DNA of 64,000 bases from a candidate division WOR-3 bacterium (GTDB lineage Bacteria > Hydrothermota > Tepidihabitantia > Tepidihabitantales > DTDR01), in the NCBI GenBank assembly GCA_039801725.1, contig JBDRVE010000005.1, positions 3,370 through 67,369 of the forward strand. Direction: 5' to 3'. Positions within the stretch are counted from its first letter, which is position 1. Every line of letters begins with the position of its first letter. The notes beneath the pieces are model-generated. The model did not search any database, was not told the DNA's origin, and was given only the letters and a program-made list of their open reading frames with translations. Positions 1 to 61,915 of this stretch are shown piece after piece. The translations under genes and the position numbers were made by a program.

Positions 1-20
1 CTCCCCAGAAAGTTAAAGTA

Positions 21-3219: not shown

Positions 3220-3247
3220 TTGACTTATCTCATTTTTTAGATATAAT
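3220..3247 (+). promoter_or_regulatory. promoter TTGACT-N16-TATAAT ending 6 nt before the htrA ATG (leaderless architecture)
   Basis: TTGACT at 3220-3225, TATAAT at 3242-3247, ATG at 3254, no RBS possible. Confidence 0.6.
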
Positions 3248-3253
3248 TTTCCT

Positions 3254-4705
3254 ATGAGAAGAGAAATTATTTTAATAATTGGTTTTTGTGTTTTGTCTTT
3301 TGCGTTAGGTTTTATCGTTTCTCCCCTGAAAGGAAAAGAAAAAACCTCTCTGTATGTCCAAAATGTTTCTCAACCAGTTTTAGAAGGAAAACCAAACTTA
3401 CCAACAAATAACATTTCTTTTGTTGAAGTTGCGGAAAAGATTATTCCGACAGTAGTAAATATTTCTGCTGAAAAATCAATAAAAATTAGAACACCGGGTT
3501 TTGAATTTTTCTCACCCTTTGAAGATTTTTTTAGAGAATTTTTTAAAGATTTCCCTTTACCAAAAGAATTTAGTGAGAAAATAAGAACCTTAGGAAGTGG
3601 TGTGATAATTTCGGAAGACGGTTATGTAATTACTAATAATCATGTAATTGAAGGATATGATAAAGTAATTATTACTCTTTCTGACGGAACAAAATTTAAA
3701 GAAAAAGAAGTAAAAATTATTGGTCGCGATTCAAAAACTGATATTGCTCTGTTGAAGATTGAAACAAAAAAGAAACTTCCCTATGCCCCCTTAGGTAATT
3801 CTGATGAAGTGAGAATTGGTGAATGGGTGATGGCAGTGGGTAATCCTTTTGGTTTATCGGGTACGGTTACCGTTGGAGTTATATCGGCTAAACATCGAAC
3901 CGGTATTGATCTTTATGGCGGACCAACTTACCAAGATTTCATCCAAACCGATGCCGCAATAAATCCAGGAAATTCCGGTGGTCCCTTAGTAAATTTGAAA
4001 GGTGAAGTTATTGGTATCAATACGGCAATTAAAACCACTTCTGGTGGGAATATTGGAATCGGTTTTGCTATTCCAATTAACTTAGTGAAAAAAGTGAAAG
4101 ATGATTTGTTAAAAAGAGGGAAAGTTGTCCGTGGTTATTTGGGGATTTATCTTCAAGAATTAACGGACGAGTTAAAAGAATCGATGGATTTACCCAAAGA
4201 TTTGGAAGGAGTGGTTATAAGAGATATTATCCCTAATTCGCCTGCAAGTAGAGCCGATTTAAAATCGGGAGATGTGATTTTAAAATTTCAAGGCAATAAA
4301 GTAAAAAGTGTTGATGAATTGAGATTTATGGTTGCTGAAACTCCCCCTAATACTAAGGTAGAGCTAGAAATTTATCGCGATGGTCGAGTTCGGAAAGTGA
4401 CTGTGGTTTTAGGAGAAATGCCTGAGGAAGTTTCCCAAGTTAAAAAGGAAGAAGTTTTAAGCATCGGGTTGCGAGTAAAAGAAACAAAAGAAGGTGTTGA
4501 AGTAGAAGAAGTGGAAGCAAATTCGCCAGCGGAAGAAGCTGGTATCCAGGTTGGTGATATTATTTTAGAAATTCAGAAAGAAAAAGTTAAAAATTTGGAT
4601 GATTACTATCGTCTTTTGGAAAGATTTAAAGAACGGAAGTCAATTCTTTTTAAAATAAAAAGAGGAAATGAAATTTATCTCATTCCTCTTCGTCTCAAAG
4701 AATAA
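3254..4705 (+). CDS. htrA: HtrA/DegP-family periplasmic serine protease with two PDZ domains
   Basis: Catalytic triad contexts NNHVIEG, DIALLKI and GNSGGPLVN; two PDZ-like C-terminal segments; N-terminal signal/anchor. Confidence 0.9.
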   Translation: MRREIILIIGFCVLSFALGFIVSPLKGKEKTSLYVQNVSQPVLEGKPNLPTNNISFVEVAEKIIPTVVNISAEKSIKIRTPGFEFFSPFEDFFREFFKDFPLPKEFSEKIRTLGSGVIISEDGYVITNNHVIEGYDKVIITLSDGTKFKEKEVKIIGRDSKTDIALLKIETKKKLPYAPLGNSDEVRIGEWVMAVGNPFGLSGTVTVGVISAKHRTGIDLYGGPTYQDFIQTDAAINPGNSGGPLVNLKGEVIGINTAIKTTSGGNIGIGFAIPINLVKKVKDDLLKRGKVVRGYLGIYLQELTDELKESMDLPKDLEGVVIRDIIPNSPASRADLKSGDVILKFQGNKVKSVDELRFMVAETPPNTKVELEIYRDGRVRKVTVVLGEMPEEVSQVKKEEVLSIGLRVKETKEGVEVEEVEANSPAEEAGIQVGDIILEIQKEKVKNLDDYYRLLERFKERKSILFKIKRGNEIYLIPLRLKE

Positions 4706-10083: not shown

Positions 10084-10112
10084 TTGACTTTTTTTTAATT
10101 TTTTGTTATAAT
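10084..10112 (+). promoter_or_regulatory. promoter TTGACT-N17-TATAAT for the pilin gene
   Basis: Consensus boxes; about 55 nt leader containing a small hairpin ACCACAATATGTGGT and a GGAGGTG RBS. Confidence 0.6.
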
Positions 10113-10167
10113 TATATTTGGAGAGACCACAATATGTGGTTAAATAAACCAAAAATGGAGGTGAATT

Positions 10168-10809
10168 ATGTTAAACAAAAAGGGCTTTACATTAATTGAA
10201 TTATTAGTGGTAATTTTAATTATCGGTATCCTATTAGCACTTATTATCCCCAACTTCGCACTTTTCCAAGAAAGAGCAAGAAGAACAAGCGTCAAAAACA
10301 ATATGCACGTAATTCAAACTGCCTTAGAGGCATGGGCATCTGACCATATGGGCCAATATCCAACCGAAGATGTAGTGGGTGATGTTCTTGACCCAGAGGG
10401 TCCTTTAGCTTATTATTTTCCTGGCGGTGACCCATTGATCGAAGATAAATTTGGTAATTTCCCATCCAACCCCTATACCGGTACTGTTTATAATGGAGGA
10501 GATTATGAAGATCTTTTTTATGGTGGAGATTTTCTATTTGAGGAACCTGGTTTGAACGCTGTGACTTGGGGAGGTTCTGAAGTAGCAGAGTGTCCTTATC
10601 TTGAATGGGCAGATGCAGTAGAGGTTTCAGGAGCAATCGCTGTAGGTGTTTATTATGATCCCGCAACTGAGATTGCTCAAGAGTATGGAATTGCTGGTTG
10701 GGGTAGACTTAATGAAGTAGGTGAAAATTATCCGATGTACGATGTAGCACCGGGTGCGGAAGATCCCTTTGAACCAGAATATTGGAACTTCTTTGTGCTT
10801 CACAACTAA
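10168..10809 (+). CDS. type IV pilin / pseudopilin with a prepilin-type N-terminal methylation domain
   Basis: N-terminus MLNKKGFTLIELLVVILIIGILLALIIP is the class III signal with G-F and E+5; the acidic Gly/Tyr-rich C-terminal domain uses noticeably more GC-rich codons than the neighbouring genes. Confidence 0.85.
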   Translation: MLNKKGFTLIELLVVILIIGILLALIIPNFALFQERARRTSVKNNMHVIQTALEAWASDHMGQYPTEDVVGDVLDPEGPLAYYFPGGDPLIEDKFGNFPSNPYTGTVYNGGDYEDLFYGGDFLFEEPGLNAVTWGGSEVAECPYLEWADAVEVSGAIAVGVYYDPATEIAQEYGIAGWGRLNEVGENYPMYDVAPGAEDPFEPEYWNFFVLHN

Positions 10810-10872: not shown

Positions 10873-10900
10873 TTGACATTTATTAAATTTTTTTTATTAT
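10873..10900 (+). promoter_or_regulatory. promoter TTGACA-N16-TATTAT ending 7 nt before the ATG (leaderless architecture)
   Basis: Read from the sequence; no RBS between the -10 and the ATG at 10908. Confidence 0.5.
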
Positions 10901-10907
10901 AGATAAT

Positions 10908-13103
10908 ATGTTTTTGTTTTTTTATCTTTTTAACTATTTAGCCAATATTGAAAGAAGTAAGGCAATTTTTTATAATCCCAGTGGTTTAGGAATAAATTCG
11001 GGTTACGAAATCTATTTTTCAAAAAAGTTAGATAAGGATACTATTTTAGATATAGGGTTTTCTTTAAATAATTTTGGTTTTGGTTTTGAAAAGAAGGGTG
11101 ATTTAAATAATTATTATTTTGGGTTTGGTCTATCTATAGGTAAAAATATATTTTGGGGCTATCGGTATCAATATATCGAAAAATTAAAGGAATCGAATCA
11201 TTTAGCAGGGTTTATTTTCCGTCCAACAAATTTTTTATCTTTTTCTTTTAGTTATAATTCAGAAAAAGATTTTAATTTTGGCATCGGTTTAAGACCGATT
11301 AATGAAAGGATAAATTTTTATTTTGACTATTATAAAAATCCCTATTATCTCTTGGGAACCGAGATAGAAATACTTGATGGGTTTTTGATAAAAGGAGAAC
11401 TGGATAAAGATAAAAATATCAACTTGGGAATAAGTTTCTCTTTTCCTAAATTTAAAATCTCTTCAAAATACGGTAGAAAATCAAAAGAGATCGAATTGTT
11501 TTTGTCAAAAGAAAGATATCTGACGATTTTTAAAAGACCTAAAAAATTTATAGAGATAACTTTTTCTGGTAATTATGATGAGGATTATTATGAGCAATCT
11601 TTATTTTTTAAAAAACGAATACCAAGATTTTATCTTTTAATAAAAAACTTAGAAGAGATTTTGAAGAAAGAAGATGTTTATGGAATTTTTATTCGTCTGA
11701 AAGATTATTATTTATCTCCTGCTCAATATGAAGAATTAAGGGAAATCCTTTTAGAAATTAAAAATAAGGGTAAGAAGGTTATTTTTTATGCCGATTATTA
11801 TAAAAGTTTGTTAGAGTACCAAATTGTTTCCCTTGGTGATTGTTTGATTTTAAATAAAGGCGGTGAAGTGGTTATTCCTGGTATTCTATTAAAGAAATAT
11901 TATATAAAGAAATTGTTAGAAAAAATAGGTGGAGAGATGGAAGTTTTAGCGATTGGTAAATATAAATCAGCAAAAGAATTATTCACAAGAGAAAACATGT
12001 CAGAAGAAGATAAAGAACAACTTAATGAAATTCTTGATATGATTTATTCAAAAGTAAAAGAAAATATTAAGGAAACAAGAATAAGAGAAAGAGATTTGGA
12101 TAGTTTGATAAATTATTATGGTTATTTTAATGAGAAGTTGGCAAAGGAGTTTGGATTAATCGATACGGTTTTATATCCGAAAGATGTTGATGAATTTTTA
12201 AAGAAATATACCAAAGTTAAAAAGATAAAAATAGAAAAATATTTGGGTGAGAAAGAAATAGGAAGAAGTTGGTTAAAGAGAAAAAAGAAAATTGCTTTGG
12301 TAATTGCGGAAGGAACGATTGTTGATGGAAAAAGTGGTTATGACCCAAGACCATTAATTGGTGGAAAATATATTGGCTCAGAAACAATGGAGGAGATATT
12401 TAAGAAATTAGAAAAGGATAAGTCAATTAAAGCGGTTATTTTCCGAATAAATTCTGGTGGTGGTTCAGCAAGTGCTTCAGAAATAATTGCTAATGCCGTT
12501 AAAAAATGTAATGAGAAAAAGCCGGTAATTGTTTCAATGGGAAATGTTGCTGCTTCCGGTGGCTATTATATCGCTTGTTTGGCAAGAAGAATCCTTGCTG
12601 ATAATTCAACTATTACTGGTTCAATTGGTATTTTCAGCATTAAATTTGTTGCTAAAAAATTATATGAAGATAAATTAGGGATTACTTTTGATTATTTAAA
12701 GAGAGGAGAAATGGCTGATGCCCAAACAGAATTGCGTGGTTATACTGAAAGGGAAAGAGAAATTTTTATGAAACAATTGGAATGGTGGTATGATAAATTT
12801 ATCACGCGCGTAAGTGAAGGAAGAAAATTAAATAAAGAATATATTGATTCTATCGGTCAAGGTAGGGTTTGGAGTGGATATAAAGCAAAAGAATTGGGAT
12901 TGGTTGATGAGATTGGTCCGTTGAGAAAAGCAATTGAGATAGCCAAAGAAGAAGCCAAAATTAAAAAAGGAGAAGAGATAGAAATATTTTTATATCCGAA
13001 GGAAGAGAGAAGATTTCTCTTTTCTTTTCCAAAGGTTAATATTTTTGCTTTATTAAAGGAAAGAATTCTTTATTTGCTGCCGGAAAATATTGTAATTGAA
13101 TAG
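10908..13103 (+). CDS. sppA: signal peptide peptidase SppA (protease IV, 67K-type, tandem S49 domains) with an N-terminal extension of about 200 aa
   Basis: S49 motifs SGGGSASASE, MGNVAASGGYYIA and GSIGIF; the first approximately 200 aa are F/G/Y/N-rich and not SppA-like. Confidence 0.75.
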   Translation: MFLFFYLFNYLANIERSKAIFYNPSGLGINSGYEIYFSKKLDKDTILDIGFSLNNFGFGFEKKGDLNNYYFGFGLSIGKNIFWGYRYQYIEKLKESNHLAGFIFRPTNFLSFSFSYNSEKDFNFGIGLRPINERINFYFDYYKNPYYLLGTEIEILDGFLIKGELDKDKNINLGISFSFPKFKISSKYGRKSKEIELFLSKERYLTIFKRPKKFIEITFSGNYDEDYYEQSLFFKKRIPRFYLLIKNLEEILKKEDVYGIFIRLKDYYLSPAQYEELREILLEIKNKGKKVIFYADYYKSLLEYQIVSLGDCLILNKGGEVVIPGILLKKYYIKKLLEKIGGEMEVLAIGKYKSAKELFTRENMSEEDKEQLNEILDMIYSKVKENIKETRIRERDLDSLINYYGYFNEKLAKEFGLIDTVLYPKDVDEFLKKYTKVKKIKIEKYLGEKEIGRSWLKRKKKIALVIAEGTIVDGKSGYDPRPLIGGKYIGSETMEEIFKKLEKDKSIKAVIFRINSGGGSASASEIIANAVKKCNEKKPVIVSMGNVAASGGYYIACLARRILADNSTITGSIGIFSIKFVAKKLYEDKLGITFDYLKRGEMADAQTELRGYTEREREIFMKQLEWWYDKFITRVSEGRKLNKEYIDSIGQGRVWSGYKAKELGLVDEIGPLRKAIEIAKEEAKIKKGEEIEIFLYPKEERRFLFSFPKVNIFALLKERILYLLPENIVIE

Positions 13104-25017: not shown

Positions 25018-25045
25018 TTGACTTAATGAGTTTTGGCATTATAAT
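25018..25045 (+). promoter_or_regulatory. promoter TTGACT-N16-TATAAT ending 6 nt before the ATG (leaderless architecture)
   Basis: TTGACT at 25018-25023, TATAAT at 25040-25045, ATG at 25052. Confidence 0.55.
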
Positions 25046-25051
25046 TAGGTA

Positions 25052-27445
25052 ATGTTGTTTTTCTTTCTCTTTCTTTTACAACTAAAAGATACAATAATTC
25101 CTGAAAGATATTATTATTTAGGACCTTTTTTAGTTGCGCCTCGAGAAGGGATTAGCGGAATAAAAGAAGAGAATTTCTATTTTGGCATTGATACAACTCA
25201 AAATTTCCCAACAAGTTTAGCCCAAGGAGGTTATACAAGTTGGCAATCAACAGTTTCTGATAGCCAAGGAAATGTAAAGTTTTCTTTTGATAATGTCCTT
25301 TGGGATACTTTAATCCAGTTTTATGGTTTTAGTGTTGTTTTAAATCTTACCTATGCCTATACCGAAATTGAAATGGAAGAAGATAAGATAATGCTTGTGA
25401 TGGCAGAAAGGGTTGGTAGTTTTTTTGTTAATGGTAAAGGTTATGTGGGTGATGCCTACGGCCATAACTTTTTTAGAATACCAGTAAAATTTAAAAAAGG
25501 TAAGAATTCAATCTTATTAAAAGTAAGTGGTTATGGTGAAAGGAGTTTTAGATTTATTATCTTCCAACCAAAAAATAAGGTTATCCTTATCAAAGAGGAT
25601 ATAACAAAACCAGATATTTTAAAAGAGAGAGAAGAGCAAAGGCTTATTTTAGGAATACCTTTTTTAAATACTACCGAAGAGAAGGTTAATTTCAAATTAA
25701 AATTTTATCTCCAAGATGAGTTATTAAAAGAAGAGAATAAATATTTAATGCCCTTTGCGATTACCAAATTCCCAATAGAATTAAAAATAAATAATAAAAA
25801 ATTAAACCTTAATGATTCAATTGTTTATATTTCTCTTTTGGTTGAAACAAAAGATGAGAAAGTAAGGGATTCTTTTAAAATCTATATCACTTCCGAAACC
25901 TTGCCCCATTCGGTAACTTTCATCTCCCAAATTGATTCTTCCTGCCAATATTTCGCTATCTTCTATCCAAATAATTTCGATAAAAATAAAAGATACGGTT
26001 TAATCTATTCATTACACGGAGCGGGTGTTGAAGCAATTGGTCTTTGTAAAGTTTATTCTAAAAAGGATTTTGCCTTTGTTGCCTGTCCGACAAATAGAAG
26101 ACCCTTTGGTTTTGATTGGGAAGACTGGGGATATTTAGATTGTAAAGAGGTTTTAGAATATATAATAAAAAATTATCCCATTGATACAAATCGGATATAT
26201 TTAACTGGTCATTCCATGGGTGGGCATGGTTGTTGGGTATTTGGGTTATTAAATCCTTCTCTCTTTGCCGCAATCGCTCCGGGTGCTGGTTGGATTTCCC
26301 ATCAATCTTATGTTCCTTGGCTTTTCCAAAAAAGTTTAATATATGCTGACCCAGAGATAATTGCTTTAAGGGATAAAATCTTAAAGACCTATCAGACAAT
26401 CCATTACTTAGAAAATGCTCATTCTTTACCAATATTTATCTTTCATGGTTCCTTAGATGATAATGTACCACCTCTTTTTGGTCGGATGTTTAATTTTGAG
26501 TTAGAAAGATTAGGTTTTAAAAAGATATACAAAGAAGTTCCTAATGTAAAACATTGGTATACTTTACCGGATACCAATATTGTCTGTGTTGACGACCCAG
26601 ATATCATCAATTTCTTTAAAGAAAACGAAAGGGAACCTTTTCCCAAAAAGATTGGTTTTAAAACCTATGATTTAGATATTAGTAATAAAAATTATTGGTT
26701 AGAAGTTTTAGAAGAGGAAGAATTTGGCAGGGAGATAAAAGTTTCTTGTGAAATAAAAAACGAAACCATATTTATAAATACAAGTAATGTTAAAGTTTTG
26801 AAAATCTATCTAATTCCGGAATTAAAAGGGAAAGGAAAAATATATATTAAGATTGACGAGAATATTTTAAAATCTTCCACTTTTTCACCTATTTATTTAG
26901 TCAAGAATAAAAAATGGCAAATAAAGAAAAGTTTAAGATTAGAAAGGAAACATTTAAGAACAATGAAAAAGGCATATTTTTCACCTTTTATCTTAGTTTA
27001 TTCAACAAAATCAGACACTGCTTATAAAATTACTTATTCTCAAGCCTTGAGGGAAAGTTATTTATGGTACCGTTACGGCAATGGTTATTGTTTAATTTTA
27101 CCCGATACTTTAATTAATAATGAATTAGCAAAAAGTTATAATTTAATAGTTTTTGGCGATGAAAATTATAACTATCTGGCCGAGAGGTTAAAATTAAAGA
27201 AGATAAAAGAAGAAATTTTTAAGGATTTAAAACAAGAGTTTGCTTATCGGTTTATCTATTTTAATCCTTTAAATAAAGATAAATTTATTTTGGTTTCTTC
27301 CGGAACAAATTTGGAAAATCTTTCTCTTTCTACTTATTTTTCTTTATTATCTTCGGCAGTAGGGATGCCCGATTATGTTATTTTTAATTCCGAAGTAAAA
27401 GAAAAGGGGCTGGGCGGTGTTCTCAAAATGGGTTTTTTCCAATAA
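25052..27445 (+). CDS. large hypothetical protein with a central alpha/beta-hydrolase (S9/esterase-like) domain
   Basis: GHSMGGHG nucleophile elbow, downstream FHGSLDDNVP and HW acid/His contexts; N- and C-terminal regions unknown. Confidence 0.6.
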   Translation: MLFFFLFLLQLKDTIIPERYYYLGPFLVAPREGISGIKEENFYFGIDTTQNFPTSLAQGGYTSWQSTVSDSQGNVKFSFDNVLWDTLIQFYGFSVVLNLTYAYTEIEMEEDKIMLVMAERVGSFFVNGKGYVGDAYGHNFFRIPVKFKKGKNSILLKVSGYGERSFRFIIFQPKNKVILIKEDITKPDILKEREEQRLILGIPFLNTTEEKVNFKLKFYLQDELLKEENKYLMPFAITKFPIELKINNKKLNLNDSIVYISLLVETKDEKVRDSFKIYITSETLPHSVTFISQIDSSCQYFAIFYPNNFDKNKRYGLIYSLHGAGVEAIGLCKVYSKKDFAFVACPTNRRPFGFDWEDWGYLDCKEVLEYIIKNYPIDTNRIYLTGHSMGGHGCWVFGLLNPSLFAAIAPGAGWISHQSYVPWLFQKSLIYADPEIIALRDKILKTYQTIHYLENAHSLPIFIFHGSLDDNVPPLFGRMFNFELERLGFKKIYKEVPNVKHWYTLPDTNIVCVDDPDIINFFKENEREPFPKKIGFKTYDLDISNKNYWLEVLEEEEFGREIKVSCEIKNETIFINTSNVKVLKIYLIPELKGKGKIYIKIDENILKSSTFSPIYLVKNKKWQIKKSLRLERKHLRTMKKAYFSPFILVYSTKSDTAYKITYSQALRESYLWYRYGNGYCLILPDTLINNELAKSYNLIVFGDENYNYLAERLKLKKIKEEIFKDLKQEFAYRFIYFNPLNKDKFILVSSGTNLENLSLSTYFSLLSSAVGMPDYVIFNSEVKEKGLGGVLKMGFFQ

Positions 27446-30290: not shown

Positions 30291-30878
30291 GTGAATGAAA
30301 AAGAAAGTCCCTATATTATCTGTGGTTTAGGCAATCCTGGTAAAGAATACCAATTTACCCGCCACAATTTAGGTTTTTTAGTTTTAGATAGTTTAGTAAA
30401 AGATTTTAATGAGAAATTTAAAAATTACCAGTTTTATGAAAGTGCGATAATTTCTTTTGAAAATAAAAAGATTTACTTAGTAAAACCCTTAACCTATATG
30501 AATTATTCGGGTGTTGGTGTGAAGGAGTTCTTAAAAAATCTTTCTTACGATTTGAATAAGTTTCTTTGCATTTTAGATGATCTCAATCTGCCTTTTGGCA
30601 AAATTAGAATTAGAGAAAAGGGTAGTGATGGTGGTCATCGGGGGTTGGCAAGTATTATCTATTATTTGGAAACAAATGAATTTCCCCGATTAAGAATTGG
30701 CATTGGTAAGCCAATCGGAATGACCGCTACTGATTATGTTCTTTCGGAGTTTAATAATGAAGAGAAAGAAAAATTGCCCGAAATTATTGAAATTGCTAAA
30801 AAAGCAATTATTGTTTTTATTAGAGAAGGAATAAAATCGGCAATGAATAAATTTAATAAAAAGATTGACTTTTGCTAA
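30291..30878 (+). CDS. pth: peptidyl-tRNA hydrolase
   Basis: GLGNPGKEYQFTRHNLGF and DDLNLPFGKIRIREKGSDGGHRGL. Confidence 0.9.
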   Translation: MNEKESPYIICGLGNPGKEYQFTRHNLGFLVLDSLVKDFNEKFKNYQFYESAIISFENKKIYLVKPLTYMNYSGVGVKEFLKNLSYDLNKFLCILDDLNLPFGKIRIREKGSDGGHRGLASIIYYLETNEFPRLRIGIGKPIGMTATDYVLSEFNNEEKEKLPEIIEIAKKAIIVFIREGIKSAMNKFNKKIDFC

Positions 30879-30899
30879 TTTTCTCTTTATTATTAAGTT

Positions 30900-31943
30900 G
30901 TGAAAGTTGGTATTGTTGGCATTCCCAATGTTGGTAAAACTTCCCTTTTTAATTTATTAACAAAATGTCAGGCAAAGGTTGATTTATATCCCTTTACGAC
31001 GATTGAGAAAAATATTGGTATTGTTTGTGTTCCTGATGAAAGATTAGAAAAGATTTGTGAGATAACAAAGCCAAAGATAAAAACCTATGCAACAATTGAA
31101 TTTGTTGATATCGCTGGATTAGTCAAGGGAGCGTCAGAAGGAGAGGGTTTGGGAAATAAATTCCTTTCCCATATTCGTGAAGCCGATTTAATTTTACACT
31201 TACTAAGGGATTTCAATAATCAAATTCCTCATATTTATAGTTCTCCTAATCCAGAAAGGGATTTAGATATTTGTGAAATGGAATTGGCATTAGCCGATTT
31301 AAATATAATTGAGAATAATCTCCAAAAGATTGCCAAGATACCAACCCTCAAAGAAGAAAGAGATATAATGATAAAAATAAGAGAACATTTAATAAGAGGT
31401 GAAATTGATATAAATTTAAATGAAGAAGAAAAAAATTTGTTAAAGAAATATAATTTATTTATCTTAAAACCAAGAATATATGCGGTCAATGCTGATAAAA
31501 ATAATGGCTTTGATATTGAAAAATATCCGAAACTAAAAGAAAAGAAACCCTATATTTTTTCTACTGCCTTAGAAGAAGAGATAATTAATTTAAGTGAAGA
31601 AGAGAAAAAGGAATATCGGAAGATATTAAATCTAAATGAAGAAGGGATAATGGGATTAGTTAGCGAATGTTTTCGTACCCTTTCTTTAATAAGATTTTAC
31701 ACAATAAAGGGTGAAGAGACAAGGGCTTGGTCAATAAAAAAGGGTTCAAAGGTAATTGAGGCAGCAGAAAAAATCCATACTGATATCGCAAAAGGTTTTA
31801 TTAAAGCCGAAGTGATAAATTACAAAGATTTAATTGAAATTGGTGATTATCAAAAGGCAAAAGAAAAAGGGCTGGTAAGAATAGAAGGTAGAGATTATAT
31901 TGTAGAAGATGGCGATATAATTTTGATAAGGTTTAAGGTATAA
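30900..31943 (+). CDS. ychF: ribosome-binding ATPase YchF (Obg-family GTPase with a TGS domain)
   Basis: G1 GIVGIPNVGKTSLFN, G3 DIAGLVKGAS, C-terminal TGS domain; GTG start. Confidence 0.9.
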   Translation: MKVGIVGIPNVGKTSLFNLLTKCQAKVDLYPFTTIEKNIGIVCVPDERLEKICEITKPKIKTYATIEFVDIAGLVKGASEGEGLGNKFLSHIREADLILHLLRDFNNQIPHIYSSPNPERDLDICEMELALADLNIIENNLQKIAKIPTLKEERDIMIKIREHLIRGEIDINLNEEEKNLLKKYNLFILKPRIYAVNADKNNGFDIEKYPKLKEKKPYIFSTALEEEIINLSEEEKKEYRKILNLNEEGIMGLVSECFRTLSLIRFYTIKGEETRAWSIKKGSKVIEAAEKIHTDIAKGFIKAEVINYKDLIEIGDYQKAKEKGLVRIEGRDYIVEDGDIILIRFKV

Positions 31944-32205: not shown

Positions 32206-32240
32206 ATTGACCAGTAGATAAAAAGGGTTTATACTTATTA
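32206..32240 (+). promoter_or_regulatory. promoter TTGACC-N17-TATACT ending about 6 nt before the uvrB ATG (leaderless architecture)
   Basis: Read from the sequence; no RBS. Confidence 0.45.
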
Positions 32241-32241
32241 T

Positions 32242-34251
32242 ATGGAATTTAAACTGAAATCGCCTTTTACACCAAAAGGAGACCAGCCCAAGGCAATAAA
32301 GGAGTTATCTGAAGGGATAAAGAATGGCGAAAAATTTCTATGTCTTTTAGGTGTTACTGGTAGCGGTAAAACCTTTACTATTGCTAATGTTATTCAGGAA
32401 GTTCAAAAACCGACAATTATTATCTCACATAATAAAACCTTGGCTGCCCAATTGTATGGTGAATTTAAACAGTTCTTTCCCGAAAATGCGGTTGAATATT
32501 TTATCTCCTATTATGACTATTATCAACCAGAGGCTTATGTACCGGAATTAGATTTATATATTGAAAAAGATGCCTCAATAAATGAAGAGATAGAAAGATT
32601 AAGACTATCTACTACCTCTTCGCTAATTGAAAGAAGAGATGTGATCGTTGTGGCTTCGGTCTCTTGTATTTATAATTTAGGTGAACCATGGGAATTTAAA
32701 GAATCAATATTTCCAATAAATTTAAATAAGAAAATAAGTAGAGATGAGTTAATTGAGAAATTAGTCGATTTGCAATATTCCCGAAATGATATCGAGTTAA
32801 AAAGATGCTGTTTTCGAGTACGAGGGGATATTGTGGAAGTTCATCCTTCCCATAAAGATTTTGGAATAAGATTTGAATTTTATTATAATACTTTGGATAA
32901 AATTACCATTTTCGATTTATTAACAAATGAGAAGATAGAAGAGAAGGAGATGGTTGTTATCTATCCGGCAAAATATTTTACCACAAATAAAAGCCGTATT
33001 GAAAGGGCAGTTGAGTCAATTGAGGAAGAACTGAAAGAAAGGGTTGCCGAATTAAAGGCGATGGGCAAATTGTTAGAGGCACAAAGATTGGAACAAAGAA
33101 CCCGTTTTGATATTGAGATGCTTTTGGAGTTTGGTTATTGTCCAGGAATTGAGAACTATTCAAGGCATCTTTTATTTAAAAAACCTGGTGAAAGACCCTA
33201 TTGCCTTTTAGATTATTTTCCGAAGGATTATTTAATGGTGATTGATGAGAGCCATATCACCATACCGCAGATTTATGGAATGTATCGGGGTGACCGCTCA
33301 AGAAAGGAGGTTTTGGTAGAATATGGCTTTCGGTTACCTTCTTGTTTAGATAACCGACCATTAAAATTTGATGAGTTTGAAAGTTTAATCAATCAAGTTA
33401 TTTTTACTTCCGCTACTCCTGGTGATTATGAATTAAAGAAAGTAAAAGCAAGGGTTGTTGAACAGATTGTTCGTCCTACCGGACTTGTTGACCCAAAGAT
33501 GATTATTAGACCAACCGAAAATCAGATAGATGATATGATAAATGAGATTAGAAAGAGGGTAAAGAGAAAAGAAAGGGTATTGGTGACAACCTTAACAAAA
33601 AGAATGGCAGAAGATTTGGCAGATTATTTGAAAGAACTTGGTTTTAAGGTTAATTATTTGCATTCAGAAATTGACCCAATAGAGAGAGTGGAGATTCTGC
33701 GGAATTTAAGATTGGGAAATTATGATGTTTTGGTTGGAATAAATCTTTTAAGGGAAGGATTAGATTTACCAGAAGTTTCTCTTGTCTGTATTTTAGATGC
33801 TGATAAGACAGGTTTTTTAAGGGATGCCCGTTCTTTGATTCAGATTGCCGGTCGGGCATCAAGAAATGTGCGGGGTGAAGTTATTTTATACGCCGATAAT
33901 ATTACCGAGGCAATAAAAGAGGCATTAAAAGAGGCAGAAAGAAGAAGAAGAATTCAATTGGAATATAATAAGAAACATGGTATAAAACCAGAAAGTATTA
34001 AAAAGACCGTTCAACAGGTTTTATTAACAACTGTTGTCGCCGATGCCAAGGAAGAAGAATATAAGATTGATGAGATAATGGATAGCGATGATAAATTAGA
34101 AATTATTGAGAAATTGACAATTGAGATGAAAAAGGCAGCCGAGAATTTAGAATTTGAAAGGGCTGCTTTTTTGAGAGATAAGATTAGGCAACTTAAAGAT
34201 GAATTAACAATTGAAACCTTAAAAAACCAAAGAAAAAGGAGAAGAAAATAA
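32242..34251 (+). CDS. uvrB: excinuclease ABC subunit B
   Basis: Walker A GVTGSGKT, helicase motifs, beta-hairpin region, C-terminal UVR domain EFERAAFLRDKIRQLK. Confidence 0.95.
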   Translation: MEFKLKSPFTPKGDQPKAIKELSEGIKNGEKFLCLLGVTGSGKTFTIANVIQEVQKPTIIISHNKTLAAQLYGEFKQFFPENAVEYFISYYDYYQPEAYVPELDLYIEKDASINEEIERLRLSTTSSLIERRDVIVVASVSCIYNLGEPWEFKESIFPINLNKKISRDELIEKLVDLQYSRNDIELKRCCFRVRGDIVEVHPSHKDFGIRFEFYYNTLDKITIFDLLTNEKIEEKEMVVIYPAKYFTTNKSRIERAVESIEEELKERVAELKAMGKLLEAQRLEQRTRFDIEMLLEFGYCPGIENYSRHLLFKKPGERPYCLLDYFPKDYLMVIDESHITIPQIYGMYRGDRSRKEVLVEYGFRLPSCLDNRPLKFDEFESLINQVIFTSATPGDYELKKVKARVVEQIVRPTGLVDPKMIIRPTENQIDDMINEIRKRVKRKERVLVTTLTKRMAEDLADYLKELGFKVNYLHSEIDPIERVEILRNLRLGNYDVLVGINLLREGLDLPEVSLVCILDADKTGFLRDARSLIQIAGRASRNVRGEVILYADNITEAIKEALKEAERRRRIQLEYNKKHGIKPESIKKTVQQVLLTTVVADAKEEEYKIDEIMDSDDKLEIIEKLTIEMKKAAENLEFERAAFLRDKIRQLKDELTIETLKNQRKRRRK

Positions 34252-38991: not shown

Positions 38992-39668
38992 TTTCCGTAA
39001 ATATAAACTTTGGCACCAATTTTTAATGAATCATAAAGCATCTTAATTCCTTCTTTTTCCACGCGAATACAACCATGGGAAACAGGGATTCCTAAGAGAT
39101 GCTCATGAGGTGTTCCGTGGATTAAAATTCCACCCCCTAAATCTAAGGCGTAATCCCCAAGGATTCCTCTCACTCTTCTTAAAGGCGAATCACTTGGTGG
39201 AATAGGTTTCTTTTCTTCAATAAATGCCCAATCTGGTTTATACCAAACAGGATTCTTAATCTTTCTCAAAACCTTTAAAACCCCTTTAGGGGTAACAAAT
39301 TGCCATTTTTTGCCGAAAGGGGCTACTAAAATTTTTCCTGAGCCACTTGAAATTTTAAATTCTCCAACAATTTTTTCTCCTTTTTTTAGATAAAGAACTT
39401 GAGAAAAGAGGTCAACCACACAATAATATTCGTCATTATTACTTTCCTTTTTGAAGGAAGTCAGTTCTTCTTTTTTCTGCCTTAAGAGTTTACGTTTTTT
39501 TTCAATAATTTTCTGGTAATTTCTTATTTCTTTTCTCAAATAATTTATTTTTTTAACATTATTAAAAACATCAAATCTTATCGTTTCATTAAAGGGATAA
39601 ACAACTTCACTTAAAAAGAAGAAAAGAAAACTTAAAAAGACAAAAAGGAACACCCAAATTATTTTCAT
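38988..39668 (-). CDS. L,D-transpeptidase (YkuD domain)
   Basis: Catalytic motif HGTPHEHLLGIPVSHGCIRVEKEG (His...Ser-His-Gly-Cys-Ile-Arg). Confidence 0.8.
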   Translation of the reverse strand: MKIIWVFLFVFLSFLFFFLSEVVYPFNETIRFDVFNNVKKINYLRKEIRNYQKIIEKKRKLLRQKKEELTSFKKESNNDEYYCVVDLFSQVLYLKKGEKIVGEFKISSGSGKILVAPFGKKWQFVTPKGVLKVLRKIKNPVWYKPDWAFIEEKKPIPPSDSPLRRVRGILGDYALDLGGGILIHGTPHEHLLGIPVSHGCIRVEKEGIKMLYDSLKIGAKVYIYGK

Positions 39669-39701
39669 TTTATTATAAATTATAAAAAAACCAATAAGTT
39701 T

Positions 39702-39718
39702 GTCAATTACAAATTGAC
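39702..39718. promoter_or_regulatory. perfect palindrome GTCAATT-aca-AATTGAC overlapping the -35 (TTGACT) of the downstream promoter; possible operator
   Basis: 7-bp arms with a 3-nt spacer; promoter TTGACT-N16-TAAAAT-N7-ATG(39749) follows. Confidence 0.45.
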
Positions 39719-39748
39719 TTTATCAATAATTTTATTAAAATTTTAAAT

Positions 39749-40036
39749 ATGTCGGAGAATGAAAAACACCAAATAAATATTGAAATTGGTGAGAAAGAAG
39801 CAGAAGGGGTTTACAGCAATTTTTTCTTAATTGCCCATTCGCCTCATGAATTTATTATTGATTTTGCTCGAATGCTTCCGGGATTACCAAAGGCAAAAGT
39901 TTTTGCCCGAGTGATTTTGACGCCGGCTCACGCGAAATTATTACTCTCTGCTTTAGAGGAGAATATTAAAAAATACGAAAGCCAATTTGGTGAAATCAAA
40001 CAGCATAGGCAAGAGAAAAAACCTTTTGGATTTTAA
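39749..40036 (+). CDS. DUF3467-like small protein
   Basis: EGVYSNFFLIAHSPHEFIIDFARMLPGLPKAKVFARVILTPAHAKLL resembles DUF3467; leaderless-type promoter. Confidence 0.5.
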   Translation: MSENEKHQINIEIGEKEAEGVYSNFFLIAHSPHEFIIDFARMLPGLPKAKVFARVILTPAHAKLLLSALEENIKKYESQFGEIKQHRQEKKPFGF

Positions 40037-45292: not shown

Positions 45293-46299
45293 TTTATCTC
45301 TTTCAATAATTTTTCAATTATATAATCAGCCGTAATACCATCGGCTTCAGCCGCAAAGTTTAAGACAATTCGGTGTCTTAATACTAAGGGTGCCATTTCT
45401 TTAATATCGTCAATAGTCGGTGTTGGTCGGCCATCTAAAATTGCTTTTCCTTTTGCTCCCAACACAAGATATTGAGATGCCCGAACCGAAGCCCCCCAAC
45501 TTACATAATCTTTAATAATTTTATAACTATTTTCTTGGGGTCTTGTTGCCCTTACTAATCCAACCGCATAATCTAAAATTTCTTCCGCAACCGGAACTTT
45601 TCTTAAAAGAGATTGTAGTTCTAATATTTCTTTAGCCGAAAGTATCGGTTTAATCTGGGGATTATAAGCCGAAGTGGTTGTTTTTACAATCTCTTTTTCT
45701 TCTTCTTTTGATGGATAAGTGATATTTATAGAAAACATAAATCTATCTAATTGGGCTTCGGGTAAAGGATAAGTTCCTTCCATTTCGATTGGATTTTGAG
45801 TAGCTAAAACTAAAAAAGGTTGGGGCAAGGGATAAGTCTCGTTACCAACAGTTACTTTATATTCTTGCATTGCTTGTAATAAAGCAGCTTGGGTTTTTGG
45901 CGGTGTTCGGTTTATTTCGTCAGCAAGAATAATATTAGCAAATATTGGACCTTTGACAAAGCGAAATTCCCTTTTACCTGTTGCCTTATCTTCCTCAATT
46001 ATCTCTGTTCCCGTTATATCAGAAGGCATCAAATCGGGTGTAAATTGAATTCTCTTAAAAGAAAGATTTAACACCTGCGCTAATGTATTTACAATTAGAG
46101 TTTTGGCTAATCCCGGAACACCAATAATTAAAGCATGACCGTTAGCAATCAGAGTAATTAAAATTTTTTCTATTACCTCTTCTTGACCAACAATAACTTT
46201 TTTTAACTCATTCTCTATCGCCCTTTTTGCCTCTCTTAATTTTAAAATTATCTCTTCGCTTTCCATAATAAATTTTAAATAAATTGATAATAAAGTCAA
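45289..46299 (-). CDS. MoxR-family AAA+ ATPase
   Basis: Walker A GVPGLAKT, Walker B/sensor ILADEINRTPPKTQAALLQAMQE, about 330 aa. Confidence 0.9.
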   Translation of the reverse strand: MTLLSIYLKFIMESEEIILKLREAKRAIENELKKVIVGQEEVIEKILITLIANGHALIIGVPGLAKTLIVNTLAQVLNLSFKRIQFTPDLMPSDITGTEIIEEDKATGKREFRFVKGPIFANIILADEINRTPPKTQAALLQAMQEYKVTVGNETYPLPQPFLVLATQNPIEMEGTYPLPEAQLDRFMFSINITYPSKEEEKEIVKTTTSAYNPQIKPILSAKEILELQSLLRKVPVAEEILDYAVGLVRATRPQENSYKIIKDYVSWGASVRASQYLVLGAKGKAILDGRPTPTIDDIKEMAPLVLRHRIVLNFAAEADGITADYIIEKLLKEIK

Positions 46300-46317
46300 T
46301 TTTAATTAGAATAAAAT

Positions 46318-46917
46318 TTGGTTGAATTAATTTTAAAAGTAATAATTATTAGTATTTCTGGTGCTTTAGCACCCGGACCTTTAACTGTCGCTACTGCCTC
46401 CTGGGGAGTAAAAAGAGGTTGGAAAGCCGGTTTAGAAATAAGTCTGGGGCATACTTTTGTTGAATTTCCGATAGTTTTATTGATTGGTTTGGGTTTAATG
46501 AATTTTCTGAAATCAGAAAAGTTTTATTTCTATTTAGGAATTTTGGGAAGTCTCTTTCTTTTTCTCTTTGGAATTTTAACTATTAAAGATGCACTTATTT
46601 ATAAACCACCTTTAATTGTTAAAGAAAAATCCTCTCTCCCATTATTAACCGGTATCGCTTTATCCTTTTTCAATCCTTATTTTCTTATTTGGTGGTTAGG
46701 AATCGGAACACCGTTAATTTACGAGGCAATAAAAAAGAGCGGTTTTATTGGTCTTTCTGTTTTATATATCTTTCATGTTTCTTTAGATTATTTTTGGCTT
46801 ATCTTTATTGCTACTTTATCTTCTTTTGCCAAAAAGAAAATTTATCGTTATCTTCTTTTTATTTTAGGGATTATAATAATTTACTTTGGTATTAAAATGC
46901 TTTTTATTTTATTCTGA
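46318..46917 (+). CDS. LysE/RhtB-family exporter (putative)
   Basis: Six-TM protein of about 200 aa with the LysE-type N-terminal helix pattern. Confidence 0.5.
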   Translation: MVELILKVIIISISGALAPGPLTVATASWGVKRGWKAGLEISLGHTFVEFPIVLLIGLGLMNFLKSEKFYFYLGILGSLFLFLFGILTIKDALIYKPPLIVKEKSSLPLLTGIALSFFNPYFLIWWLGIGTPLIYEAIKKSGFIGLSVLYIFHVSLDYFWLIFIATLSSFAKKKIYRYLLFILGIIIIYFGIKMLFILF

Positions 46918-47396: not shown

Positions 47397-47424
47397 TTGA
47401 CATTTAGAATAACTTTGTTATACT
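47397..47424 (+). promoter_or_regulatory. promoter TTGACA-N16-TATACT for the lipoprotein-serpin genes
   Basis: Near-identical to the copy A promoter context (TTCTTTCTTATTGACATTTAGAA); leader with AAGGAGG RBS. Confidence 0.55.
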
Positions 47425-47452
47425 CAAAAGTTATGACTAAAAAGGAGGAAGT

Positions 47453-47791
47453 ATGAAGAAGACATTACTTTTTTCTTTAATTGGTTTATTTTTAGTTTCT
47501 ACCTTTTTCGGTTGCGGTGCGATGATCACGATGGGCGGTGGTGGTGTGCTTTATCAAGATACCAAAATGCCACTCCCTTATGCTAGTTATTATGCCCAAG
47601 GAACCGATTCTTACTCAAAAGTAGGCGAGGCTTCTTGTACTTCCATTTTAGGAATAATTGTTACCGGTGATGCGAGCATTAAAGCAGCAATGGAGAACGG
47701 AGGAATAAGAAAGATCCACCATATTGACTATCAAGTTACCAACATCTTAGGGATTATTGCCACATATAAAACAATCGTTTACGGCGAATAG
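47453..47791 (+). CDS. small lipoprotein (TRL-like family, tentative)
   Basis: Signal peptide with FGC lipobox, glycine-rich stretch, about 112 aa. Confidence 0.5.
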   Translation: MKKTLLFSLIGLFLVSTFFGCGAMITMGGGGVLYQDTKMPLPYASYYAQGTDSYSKVGEASCTSILGIIVTGDASIKAAMENGGIRKIHHIDYQVTNILGIIATYKTIVYGE

Positions 47792-54434: not shown

Positions 54435-54577
54435 TGTTTAAATTATATCAAAAATTATGCCGTTTTTCAATTTTTTAAACTATTGATTTTTCAACAATCT
54501 TTTCTATAATTTATCAAAGGTGATTAAAAAATGGGAAAAATTTTTCTCACACTTAATTAATAGATGAATGAATAATT

Positions 54578-55199
54578 TTGTTAATGTTAATTTTTAAAGA
54601 AATAAAAACAAATTTTCCTGTTCCTTTAGCGGTTGGTAATTATTGGGTTTACAAGCACATTTTTTATTCCTATGATCCCCAAAATGATAGTATGGTTGAA
54701 GATAGTTCTTACGAAAAGGCATCAGTTTTAAGAAAAATAAATAAAATTAAGAATAAACAAGTGAATGGTTATCAAATAGCAGGTGGACCTTTACCAGGTA
54801 TTTATTTTTATGAAGATGATTATCTGTGGTTGTATTCACAAGAGAAAAATTTTTATAAAACTTTTTCCAATAAAACCTAAATATCAGGATGAATGGGAGA
54901 TGTACAGAACGGTTGAAAAGGCAGAAGAAGACTTAGATGGAGATGGAATAATTGATTCAACAGGTATTCTTTCAGTTGCCAAAATAATTAAAAAAGAAGA
55001 AAATTTATATGAAGTATTAATCTGGGAATATCAAAATTGGGAGTGGCATTCTCAAACAAAGGAATGGTTTGATTATACTTTTCCTGCCTGGGGAGGATTT
55101 ACTGTTGAAATAGGAAAAGGAATAATTAAATATGAAGAACCAGTACGTAGGGGAATAGGAGATGAATGGATAATAAGAAAATATAAAATAAAAGATTGA
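54578..55199 (+). pseudogene. frameshifted, signal-peptide-less paralog of the lipoprotein at 23282-23965
   Basis: Two overlapping ORFs (54578-54880 and 54783-55199) together align along the paralog (PLAVGNYWVY / PLAVDNWWAY; FPIKPKYQDEW / FPEKPKIGDNW); the frame change occurs in GAGAAAAATTTTTATAAAA; a promoter is still present upstream. Confidence 0.55.
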
Positions 55200-55246
55200 T
55201 TTTTGAAAATTCCTGTTTATAATTTCTACTTAAAAAGGAGGAAAGA

Positions 55247-60793: not shown

Positions 60794-61254
60794 AGTTTAA
60801 TTTATAATAAAAATTTTTAAAAAATCAATAGAAAAGAATAAGAGAGATAGAAATCCTTTAAGAAACTAAGAAAGTTTGATTTAAATTATTTCCCATCTCT
60901 TTAGCATCATTTTTAGATTATTAAAATCCTTCTCCTTAATAATAACTCTTTTTTAATAAAATTTCCGAATACATTTTAATATCTCAAATTAAAAATGATT
61001 TAAATTATATTTAAAAATTTCTTAAAAATTAACTCCAAGGTGCTCTCCAAGGCAGTATACTATATAGCCCCCTATCTAAAAGGCTAATTTTATTTAAGTT
61101 ATTGATTTTATATCACTTATATAAAAGATTGACAAAATTAAAAGTTTCCATACAGGAAACTTTTTGTTCTAAGTAATTTAATATCAATAACTTACAAGAA
61201 GTGGCTAATTTCATAAAATTACTGAAGGCATAAGATATTGAAAGTAATAGATTA

Positions 61255-61878: not shown

Positions 61879-61915
61879 AGGAAATTATATAAGGAAAGAA
61901 TTTAAAAGTCAAAAT

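Follow-up and report, generated by a model that had tools for sequence, protein, structure and literature searches.

In about half of the transcription units of a 64-kb stretch of DNA from an uncultured bacterium of candidate division WOR-3, a promoter of canonical form sits directly on the start codon, and the resulting mRNAs probably carry neither a leader nor a ribosome-binding site (RBS). The distance between the end of the -10 box and the start codon, hereafter the gap, is typically 5-7 nt, so that the usual start site (~7 nt after the -10 box) would coincide with the A or G that opens the codon. Judged from the sequence, it is probable that these promoters make transcription begin at that base, or no more than ~3 nt away from it, and thereby generate leaderless mRNAs; where transcription starts and how ribosomes are recruited are both inferred, +1 being extrapolated from the geometry of E. 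coli-type promoters. The leaderless arrangement is well known; apparently, there is no report of it for WOR-3. The sample was a single window, meaning here the whole 64-kb stretch (32% GC), and not a whole genome; bacterial 23S and 5S rRNA genes are present in it.

Promoters adjoining start codons

The initial annotation of this DNA had proposed that at least five genes have a consensus promoter adjoining their ATG. All five sites exist on direct reading of the sequence, and the number was an undercount, as seven further cases were found. The first lies before htrA (3220..3256, plus strand), encoding a DegQ-type protease with Pfam Trypsin_2/PDZ domains, and consists of TTGACT at 3220-3225, a spacer of 16 nt, TATAAT at 3242-3247, a gap of 6 nt and ATG at 3254; it is kept in the related loci L090 and L091. 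The promoter of the peptidase S49 gene sppA (10873..10910, plus strand) combines TTGACA at 10873, 16 nt, TATTAT at 10895-10900, 7 nt and ATG at 10908, and its counterpart in L090 reads TTGACA-16-TAAAAT-5-ATG, the -10 box being altered in both sequence and position jointly with the ATG. A 797-aa S9-family hydrolase is preceded by TTGACT at 25018, 16 nt, TATAAT at 25040-25045, 6 nt and ATG at 25052 (25018..25054, plus strand). The uvrB promoter (32207..32244, plus strand) had been correctly recognized with slightly misplaced coordinates: TTGACC begins at 32207 rather than 32206 and is followed by 17 nt, TATACT at 32230-32235, 6 nt and ATG at 32242 rather than about 32241. It is kept with gaps of 6-8 nt in L097-L099 and L002, and in a weaker form in L100 (8/12 matches, gap 9). 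The fifth promoter (39714..39751, plus strand; TTGACT at 39714, 16 nt, TAAAAT at 39736-39741, 7 nt, ATG at 39749) serves DUF3467, the first cistron of a DUF3467-cca-M50 peptidase-ftsK-acetyltransferase unit, and is kept in L097-L100 with gaps of 5-7 nt.

The further cases include genes with other start codons. The promoter of ychF (30865..30902, plus strand; TTGACT-17-TATTAT-6-GTG, GTG at 30900) has its -35 box inside the coding sequence of pth, overlapping the pth 3' end, and leads to a GUG start; both the GTG and the gap of 6 nt are kept in five of five orthologues. Back-to-back with the DUF3467 promoter lies that of the L,D-transpeptidase gene ykuD (39666..39706, minus strand; TTGACA-16-TATAAT-10-ATG, ATG at 39668), the geometry of which predicts a leader of ~3 nt, and ykuD orthologues in L098-L100 have gaps of 7-8 nt. 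The AAA_3 ATPase gene moxR (46264..46299, minus strand; TTGACT-16-TAAAAT-5-ATG, ATG at 46266) has a promoter kept in L097-L100. That of lysE (46284..46320, plus strand; TTGATA-17-TAGAAT-5-TTG, TTG at 46318), kept in L098, makes lysE a possible, if uncertain, candidate for a leaderless gene with a UUG start. The remaining three are found on the minus strand, before a pgsB-like Mur-ligase gene heading a six-gene unit (54432..54470; TTGAAA-17-TATAAT-7-ATG, ATG at 54434), before cstA (60791..60828; TTGATT-16-TATAAA-7-ATG, ATG at 60793) and before a gene for a 207-aa S9-like hydrolase (61876..61912; TTGACT-17-TATAAT-5-ATG, ATG at 61878). The -10 box of cstA lacks the final T, making this a weaker candidate; an alternative -10 box (TATTAT) was rejected, as the spacer would be 13 nt. 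Three members of the set are thus imperfect, namely ykuD (gap of 10 nt), cstA (TATAAA) and lysE (UUG, with the canonical +1 inside the codon). The gap measures 5-7 nt in eleven of the 12 leaderless-type sites and 10 nt in one.

Other genes of the window are led by a Shine-Dalgarno (SD) sequence, as had been stated earlier for the pilin gene, the gene at 47453, the LivK-like gene and rplY; the motif is GGAGG for the pilin and AAGGAGG for the other three. The pilin promoter (10084..10170, plus strand; TTGACT-17-TATAAT) ends 55 nt before its ATG at 10168, that of the TRL-family protein (47397..47455, plus strand; TTGACA-16-TATACT), kept in L099 and L100, 28 nt before the ATG at 47453, and that of the periplasmic binding protein (55196..55249, plus strand; TTGATT-16-TATAAT) 23 nt before the ATG at 55247, while the L25 gene stands at 29631. 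The distance from promoter to start codon is bimodal, with a leaderless-type class at 5-10 nt and an SD-led class at 23-55 nt.

Position in transcription units and conservation

The 52 genes were divided into 22 first or isolated genes and 30 internal genes. A -10 box stands at a gap of 5-8 nt before 12 of the 22 first or isolated genes (the paired -10 box of ykuD being at a gap of 10 nt), and 11 of these 12 have an identifiable -35 box. No SD motif was found in the 12 leaderless-type first or isolated genes of the window; a strong SD is present in six of the 22, none of which has an adjacent -10 box. Among the internal genes, TAnnnT occurs at 5-8 nt in 6/30, approximately the chance level, and the composite of -35 and -10 boxes in 0/30.

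Conservation was assessed in 34 orthologous promoters of eight genes, taken from syntenic loci of relatives. Pairwise identity reaches 0.91 in the -35 box and 0.94 in the -10 box, against 0.60 in the spacer, 0.60 in the upstream 20 nt and 0.66 in the gap, although the relatives are close (73-92% protein identity) and part of the conservation could reflect a lack of divergence; for ychF, moreover, the -35 box is also pth coding sequence. The spacer is 16-17 nt in all 34 promoters and the gap 5-7 nt in 28 of them, and a T precedes the start codon in 27/34, producing a T-A/G-T triplet in agreement with the Y-R-Y 'start element' described around start sites (PMC12641261). Together with the absence of room for an SD, the spacing of 16-17 bp, the gap of 5-7 nt, the restriction to first genes and this footprint support the leaderless reading that the initial annotation had offered.

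The FCB group, close to which WOR-3 is usually placed, has 90% of its genomes in GeneMarkS-2 group B, in which a non-SD motif precedes all genes (Lomsadze et al., 2018, bioRxiv 10.1101/193490). By analogy with the non-SD motif of Bacteroidota (group B), the transcripts could be leadered and start from promoters further upstream, TAnnnT being an AT-rich, unstructured, SD-independent landing site for ribosomes. This explanation agrees with the placement of WOR-3 and with the absence of a strong SD from 26/30 internal genes, from which it is clear that the organism does use SD-independent initiation. We nevertheless regard it as improbable, because the box is always paired with a TTGAC-type -35 box at 16-17 bp that is as conserved as the -10 box itself, the DNA 5' of the -35 box is unconserved, and the composite is missing from internal genes, whereas a group-B motif would be shared by all genes. 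Moreover, in two divergent gene pairs the start codons are only 51 and 80 bp apart, leaving no space for more promoters.

Correctness of the start codons

The leaderless reading also depends on where the proteins begin. If the promoters were real and the annotated starts wrong, translation would proceed from a downstream codon behind an ordinary leader, and gene callers do disagree in places: in L099 the moxR call extends 5' across the promoter (340 aa vs 325 aa, 15 codons too long), the mechanical list of open reading frames (ORFs) takes the TTG in the moxR -35 box as the start of that gene, and an L090 gene was called from 2923 vs 2956 in the present analysis. This explanation is very unlikely, however, with family alignments beginning at residues 1-4. 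In Pfam alignments, profile position 1 corresponds to residue 2 in YchF (MMR_HSR1), position 2 to residue 2 in CstA and position 4 to residue 4 in DUF3467, and UvrB N-termini align from residue 1-3 in 80 loci. Signal-peptide-like hydrophobic N-termini follow the proposed ATG in htrA, the S9 hydrolases and ykuD; the N-terminus of SppA is hydrophobic and less clearly signal-peptide-like. A downstream in-frame SD-led start was looked for in the leaderless-type genes and none was found; the next in-frame starts, 66, 64 and 41 codons downstream in uvrB, moxR and DUF3467, would remove conserved N-terminal residues. Position 1 of the LysE profile aligns to residue 13, and no other in-frame ATG, GTG or TTG start was found for lysE. 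Independent gene calls in the relatives are concordant with the proposed starts. These results validate the annotated starts as the true N-termini, more weakly so for the pgsB-like gene and both S9 hydrolases, which fell outside the orthologue check.

Excess over chance

Two tests addressed the frequency of the architecture. The strict composite (TTGAC-16/17-TANNNT-5..7-ATG) was observed seven times in the window, compared with 0.21 +/- 0.49 expected from 300 dinucleotide-preserving shuffles, whose maximum was 3. A promoter with >=10/12 matches at a gap of 5-7 nt precedes 9/52 curated gene starts vs 2/2066 other ATG/GTG codons (Fisher p = 8e-14). The density of composites at ORF starts per 10 kb is 1.56 in the window and 0.88 in eight WOR-3 loci, and 0.03 (one hit in 393 kb) in 23 non-WOR-3 loci with GC <45%. 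Chance matches, as AT-rich hexamers might produce in DNA of 32% GC, are suggested by the abundance of loose promoter-like patterns (175 occurrences of TTGNNN-16/17-TANNNT vs 151 expected) and by TAnnnT before some internal genes, but are already refuted by these counts, by the near-absence of hits in other AT-rich loci and by the conservation of orthologous sites.

Distribution among relatives

The trait is unevenly distributed within WOR-3. In more distant WOR-3 genomes (L093-L096) htrA is SD-led, and more distant WOR-3 genomes have the same promoter design on other genes. At the closest uvrB loci, L001 (70%) and L003 (63%), the architecture was not seen at uvrB, so the trait is gene- and clade-specific and not fixed at uvrB across WOR-3. 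When metagenomes were scanned with the CCA-adding enzyme, the matches were either contigs identical or almost identical to this one (L081, L082, L088) or remote homologues at 28-42% identity, which added nothing to the comparison.

Proposed mechanism

Initiation at the 5' terminus of leaderless mRNAs has been shown in Actinobacteria, Deinococcus-Thermus and E. coli. In mycobacteria and in E. coli (lambda cI, Tn1721 tetR) a 5'-terminal AUG, and in mycobacteria also GUG, is the sole initiation signal. For the WOR-3 genes the comparison is made from sequence, and initiation on the conserved GUG of ychF and the possible UUG of lysE is putative. According to the mechanism we propose, promoters of the housekeeping sigma factor (sigma-70/sigma-A type) would drive the leaderless-type units, and the resulting mRNA would have no 5'UTR and no SD sequence. 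At the first cistron, the 5'-terminal AUG (or GUG) would be recognized by ribosomes together with initiator tRNA, and later cistrons would be reached by internal initiation, mostly where a stop codon overlaps the next start, SDs being weak or absent. Only the 5'-proximal cistron of each unit would therefore be leaderless: of the two housekeeping genes formerly cited as leaderless, uvrB remains in the set, whereas ftsK, as fourth gene of the DUF3467 unit, must initiate internally. The same promoter class, at a spacing of 23-55 nt and with AAGGAGG, would drive the pilin, the lipoprotein-like proteins, the binding protein and L25. Processing of the MazF type as a source of leaderless mRNA was rejected, as it has no support and the observations are accounted for by the -35/-10 promoters.

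Comparison with known systems

The mixture of leaderless-type and SD-led genes noted earlier is clearly present, and it is noteworthy only for WOR-3, since such a mixture defines a known class of genomes. This is group C of GeneMarkS-2, exemplified by Mycobacterium tuberculosis and Deinococcus deserti, in which a Pribnow box lies 6-8 nt before first-gene starts, an RBS is used elsewhere and ~25-50% of operons are leaderless; it is concentrated in Actinobacteria (90%) and Deinococcus-Thermus (97%), mostly of high GC (Lomsadze et al., 2018). The related category of TA-led genes was defined by Zheng et al. (2011) through a TANNNT ~12 bp before the start (measured from the first T) that represents a leaderless -10 box, and tends to TAtAAT in lower-GC genomes; orthologues change from SD-led to TA-led states, or back, with phylogenetic distance (PMC3160421). 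The features of both categories were found here, namely a -10 box near the first-gene start, no SD, confinement to first genes and a correct start codon; the window resembles group C in its mixed genes, with 12/22 units of leaderless type in 64 kb, and TA-led genes in its TAtAAT-like box and the switching of htrA across WOR-3. With 11-12 of 52 genes (~20%) TA-led, it matches the level of Actinobacteria, Aquificae and Deinococcus-Thermus in the survey of Zheng et al., which had no WOR-3 genome and in which Bacteroidetes/Chlorobi reached 2.4% of genes in 1/37 genomes (PMC3160421). Unlike group C, this DNA has 32% GC, a full consensus -35 box (TTGACt) and internal cistrons mostly without an SD. 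Group B does not apply, as internal genes lack the motif and the box is coupled to a -35 box, and neither does the archaeal-type group D (TATA/BRE ~26 nt upstream), the architecture being the bacterial -35/-10 one.

Experiments in Deinococcus-Thermus have recently established that a TANNNT a few bp before an ORF is the -10 box of a leaderless promoter with a spacing requirement, that this box works largely without a -35 box, the addition of which enhances expression, and that gene callers mis-extend leaderless genes upstream (PMC12340547). Such mis-extension recurs here in moxR, in the ORF list of the window as well as in L099, whereas the near-consensus, conserved -35 box distinguishes the WOR-3 promoters from those of Deinococcus.

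Implications

Leaderless-type promoters in WOR-3 alter no general concept; they add an uncultured AT-rich lineage to the leaderless-rich bacteria, with switching between SD-led and leaderless states at the level of orthologues. A broader joint reading, which we advance tentatively and with less than even confidence, is that WOR-3 could be the third major leaderless clade after Actinobacteria and Deinococcus-Thermus, with ~half of its units involved. Among such clades it would be the first with AT-rich DNA and the first that is usually grouped close to FCB; its promoters would have both -35 and -10 boxes at full consensus, and some of its leaderless genes would start at conserved codons other than AUG (GUG in ychF in 5/5 genomes and possibly UUG in lysE). 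If true, WOR-3 would offer a natural series for the switching of initiation mechanisms, as the state of an orthologue varies among its genomes: htrA, for example, is SD-led in some of them and leaderless elsewhere. The distribution of functions suggests a division of labour, in which secreted or abundant proteins (pilin, lipoprotein-like, binding protein, L25) have strong SDs and many maintenance and stress genes (htrA, sppA, uvrB, ychF, moxR, cstA) would be leaderless. As leaderless genes are given wrong starts by gene-calling programs built around an RBS, the annotation of WOR-3 metagenome-assembled genomes would gain from a dual promoter/RBS model of gene starts.

A nearby RNA-like element

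In searches against Rfam at the gathering and E-value thresholds, neither the surroundings of the promoters nor the 300-bp interval preceding uvrB gave a match to a known RNA. A conserved RNA-like element was observed at 3113-3194, in a comparison comprising only three distinct sequences. Its reading as a minus-strand mini-ORF of 13 aa was rejected, as this is unconserved, its ATG being lost in L090, and so was a small internal hairpin (TCTAT/ATAGA), which is not kept in L091. The element, in which a CCUCCUUUC motif is present, has two CCUCC (anti-SD-like) motifs, and as a further part of the joint reading above, it might selectively target the SD-led class.

Promoters adjoining start codons

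In the window, a conserved, near-consensus sigma-70-type promoter directly adjoins the start codon of a series of genes, a pattern that the initial annotation had described for at least five of them. Each of the five is present on reading the sequence, all on the + strand: htrA (TTGACT 3220, 16-nt spacer, TATAAT, 6-nt gap between the -10 hexamer and the start codon, ATG 3254), sppA (TTGACA 10873, 16 nt, TATTAT, 7 nt, ATG 10908), the 797-aa S9-family hydrolase (TTGACT 25018, 16 nt, TATAAT, 6 nt, ATG 25052), uvrB (TTGACC 32207, 17 nt, TATACT, 6 nt, ATG 32242), whose architecture stands but whose coordinates had been placed 1 nt too low, and DUF3467 (TTGACT 39714, 16 nt, TAAAAT, 7 nt, ATG 39749). 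The number of sites is raised to twelve by a regular-expression and mismatch-tolerant scan of the window, which added ychF (TTGACT 30865, 17 nt, TATTAT, 6 nt, GTG 30900) and lysE (TTGATA 46284, 17 nt, TAGAAT, 5 nt, TTG 46318) on the + strand, and ykuD (TTGACA 39706, 16 nt, TATAAT, 10 nt, ATG 39668), moxR (TTGACT 46299, 16 nt, TAAAAT, 5 nt, ATG 46266), a pgsB-like Mur-ligase gene (TTGAAA 54470, 17 nt, TATAAT, 7 nt, ATG 54434), cstA (TTGATT 60828, 16 nt, TATAAA, 7 nt, ATG 60793) and a gene for a 207-aa S9-like protein (TTGACT 61912, 17 nt, TATAAT, 5 nt, ATG 61878) on the - strand, gene identities being taken from Pfam. The least secure members are cstA, with its TATAAA, and lysE, with a TTG start and the canonical +1 within the codon. 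The start codons of two divergent pairs lie only 80 bp (ykuD/DUF3467, 39666-39751) and 51 bp (moxR/lysE, 46264-46320) apart, the intergenic DNA consisting of two back-to-back promoters alone with -35 boxes separated by 7 and 4 bp, and the same arrangement is seen at uvrB in a syntenic relative (L002).

This pattern exceeds chance. Counting both strands, the strict composite TTGAC-N-16/17-TANNNT-5..7-ATG has seven occurrences; 300 dinucleotide-preserving shuffles of the window gave 0.21 +/- 0.49, and none attained that count. Promoters that match at 10 or more of 12 positions, with a gap of 5-7 nt, precede 9 of 52 curated gene starts, compared with 2 among the 2066 remaining ATG/GTG trinucleotides (Fisher p = 8e-14). 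At ORF starts, the density of the composite per 10 kb is 1.56 in the window (GC 31.6%), 0.88 across eight WOR-3 loci and 0.03 across 23 loci from other lineages whose GC is below 45% (among them Ignavibacteria, Cytophagia, Zixibacteria and Lactobacillales), and AT-richness alone is therefore insufficient to produce it.

Two classes of gene start

Across all strong promoter-like sites of the window, the distance to the next gene start is bimodal (5-10 nt and 23-55 nt), and every member of the longer cluster, namely the pilin gene (10168), the genes at 16020 and 23282, the TRL-family gene (47453) and the binding protein gene (55247), has a GGAGG or AAGGAGG Shine-Dalgarno sequence (SD) 4-6 nt 5' of its ATG. 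The mixture of leaderless-type and SD-led genes reported initially is thus confirmed, including the SDs of the pilin, 47453 and 55247 genes. Among the 22 first or isolated genes of the curated set, 12 have an adjacent promoter and lack an SD, six show the converse, a strong SD without an adjacent -10, and four (holA 17791, serpin 47830, prs 28669 and the gene at 63449) belong to neither class; the rubredoxin gene, outside the curated list, is a seventh SD-led unit. The combined -35 and -10 composite precedes none of the 30 operon-internal genes, and TAnnnT alone stands before six of them, about the chance rate. The signal therefore behaves as a promoter and not as a ribosome-binding motif, and only the 5' cistron of a unit would be leaderless. 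Leaderless initiation had also been proposed for housekeeping genes, which is supported for uvrB but not for ftsK, an internal cistron of the DUF3467-cca-M50-ftsK-acetyltransferase unit with a 4-nt overlap with its upstream neighbor.

As in FCB-group bacteria, SDs are little used overall: 26 of the 30 internal genes lack a strong SD (only about four carry one), many internal cistrons have an overlap of 1-4 nt or more with the preceding stop codon, and strong SDs (AAGGAGG) cluster on a few first genes encoding secreted or abundant proteins. Both holA (17740-17793) and the serpin gene (ATG 47830 or 47839; 47792-47841) directly follow a GC-rich terminator-like hairpin, with no promoter or SD found. 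Between tRNA-Gln (28585-28659) and the prs ATG, 9 nt past its 3' end, there is neither an SD nor a promoter; if both are on one transcript, maturation of the tRNA would give prs a leader of at most about 9 nt, and hence a processing-generated, near-leaderless mRNA.

Conservation among relatives

The best relatives of UvrB, HtrA and YkuD all carry a candidate division WOR-3 annotation, and one NCBI WOR-3 MAG protein (P0121) matches the window YkuD at 100% identity across the 186 residues it covers. In the syntenic loci L090 and L091 (HtrA 84-89% identical), L097-L100 (YkuD 73-79%) and L002 (UvrB 68%), the design is kept in all eight comparable genes, giving 34 promoter instances with a spacer of 16 or 17 nt throughout and a gap of 5-7 nt in 28, 8 nt in three and 9-10 nt in three. 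The -35 hexamer has a pairwise identity of 0.91 and the -10 hexamer one of 0.94, compared with 0.60 in both the spacer and the upstream 20 nt and 0.66 in the gap. Geometry is kept even where the sppA -10 changes from TATTAT (gap 7) in the window to TAAAAT (gap 5) in L090, the GTG and 6-nt gap of ychF are conserved in 5/5 genomes, and the ykuD gap is 10 nt in the window versus 7-8 nt in orthologues. A T immediately precedes the start codon in 27 of the 34 instances, and the resulting T-R-T triplet fits the Y-R-Y start element that has been described in the vicinity of bacterial start sites (PMC12641261).

In the more distant WOR-3 loci L093-L096 (HtrA 50-58% identical), htrA is SD-led in the usual way, with GGAGG, and the leaderless composite stands at other independently called starts (ETF-alpha, DUF192, ApbE and ThiD2). 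Orthologues are known to change initiation mechanism with phylogenetic distance (Zheng et al., 2011), and the WOR-3 loci provide a natural series of such switches.

Start codons and their annotation

Several proteins argue for the promoter-adjacent starts. UvrB begins with MEFKLKSPFTPKGDQP and aligns from residue 1-3 in 80/80 homologous loci; in Pfam, the YchF GTPase profile begins at residue 2, profile positions 2 of CstA and 4 of DUF3467 fall on residues 2 and 4, and the LysE profile begins at residue 13, with no alternative in-frame ATG/GTG/TTG start. Use of the next in-frame starts, where no SD was found in the leaderless-type genes, would delete conserved sequence. Independent gene calls in relatives pick the same starts, except for moxR in L099 (at 3378-3423), where the public call runs upstream through the promoter and is 15 codons too long. 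Similarly, in a mechanical ORF list of the window, moxR (at 46264-46299) begins at the TTG that opens its own -35 box, and in L090 (at 2923-2956) a gene is called 11 codons shorter than its promoter-adjacent start. The architecture thus causes start-codon mis-calls, and its recognition is of practical use for annotating WOR-3 MAGs.

Leaderless initiation and known systems

Transcription typically begins some 7 nt (range 6-9) past the -10, preferably at a purine. By this established geometry, gaps of 5-7 nt would place +1 at the first base (A or G) of the start codon, leaving the mRNA without a leader, and its 5'-terminal start codon would have to serve translation, presumably by the 70S/IF2-dependent initiation route described for leaderless mRNAs. 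For the window ykuD, with its gap of 10, the predicted leader is some 3 nt long. Within the limits of sequence analysis, the leaderless reading of these genes is supported.

The promoter-on-start design is an already known phenomenon, here in another lineage. It fits the definition of GeneMarkS-2 group C, in which a Pribnow box lies 6-8 nt from first-in-operon starts, RBSs are used elsewhere and 25-50% of operons are leaderless; this group comprises 1028 of 4769 bacterial genomes, mainly Actinobacteria and Deinococcus-Thermus, and 90% of FCB genomes fall into group B. It also fits the TA-led genes (TANNNT before the start) that exceed 20% in Actinobacteria, Deinococcus-Thermus and Aquificae, and that reach 2.4% in one of 37 Bacteroidetes/Chlorobi genomes (Zheng et al., 2011). 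In Deinococcus, the role of the start-adjacent -10 motif and the ensuing mis-annotations have been demonstrated experimentally (PMC12340547). The window differs from these systems in its WOR-3 lineage, low GC, strong conserved -35 and few SDs on internal cistrons, and our literature search found no paper naming leaderless together with WOR-3.

Other features of the neighborhood

Between the divergent rubredoxin and htrA genes lies a conserved single-copy element (3086-3206, core 3113-3194), in which a 13-bp stem, AACCACGGGGCTC / GAGCCCCGTGGTT, encloses about 58 nt with two CCTCC motifs and is followed by a T-run on the + strand. In L090 and L091 the loop is kept with hardly any change, and a G-C to A-T replacement in one pair of the stem is compensatory; the fold z-score is -5.4, and a conserved + strand promoter is present (TTGATT 3052-16-TATAAT). 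One CCTCC motif, GCCTCCTTTC, resembles the anti-SD tail of 16S rRNA. The element, which had no match in Rfam, is a candidate sRNA of about 120 nt that could be transcribed from this promoter and pair with the AAGGAGG leaders of SD-led genes. A minus-strand mini-ORF at this element is not conserved.

A 264-aa sigma-70-family gene (4705-5499) shares 1 nt with the htrA stop codon (TAATG). It comes after htrA in every WOR-3 relative inspected apart from L096, and this suggests a conserved protease/alternative-sigma stress operon. The 23S-5S rRNA operon (6734-9976) has its own promoter of the same class as the gene promoters (TTGACT-16-TATATT); the absence of a 16S gene upstream of it means that the rRNA genes are unlinked. 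Finally, about 260 bp of non-coding DNA (31944-32206), without an Rfam match, separate ychF from the uvrB promoter, and a strong promoter-like site (TTGATA 31923-16-TATAAT) is directed into this gap; among relatives, the interval ranges from 83 bp to one with an additional 301-aa gene (L097).
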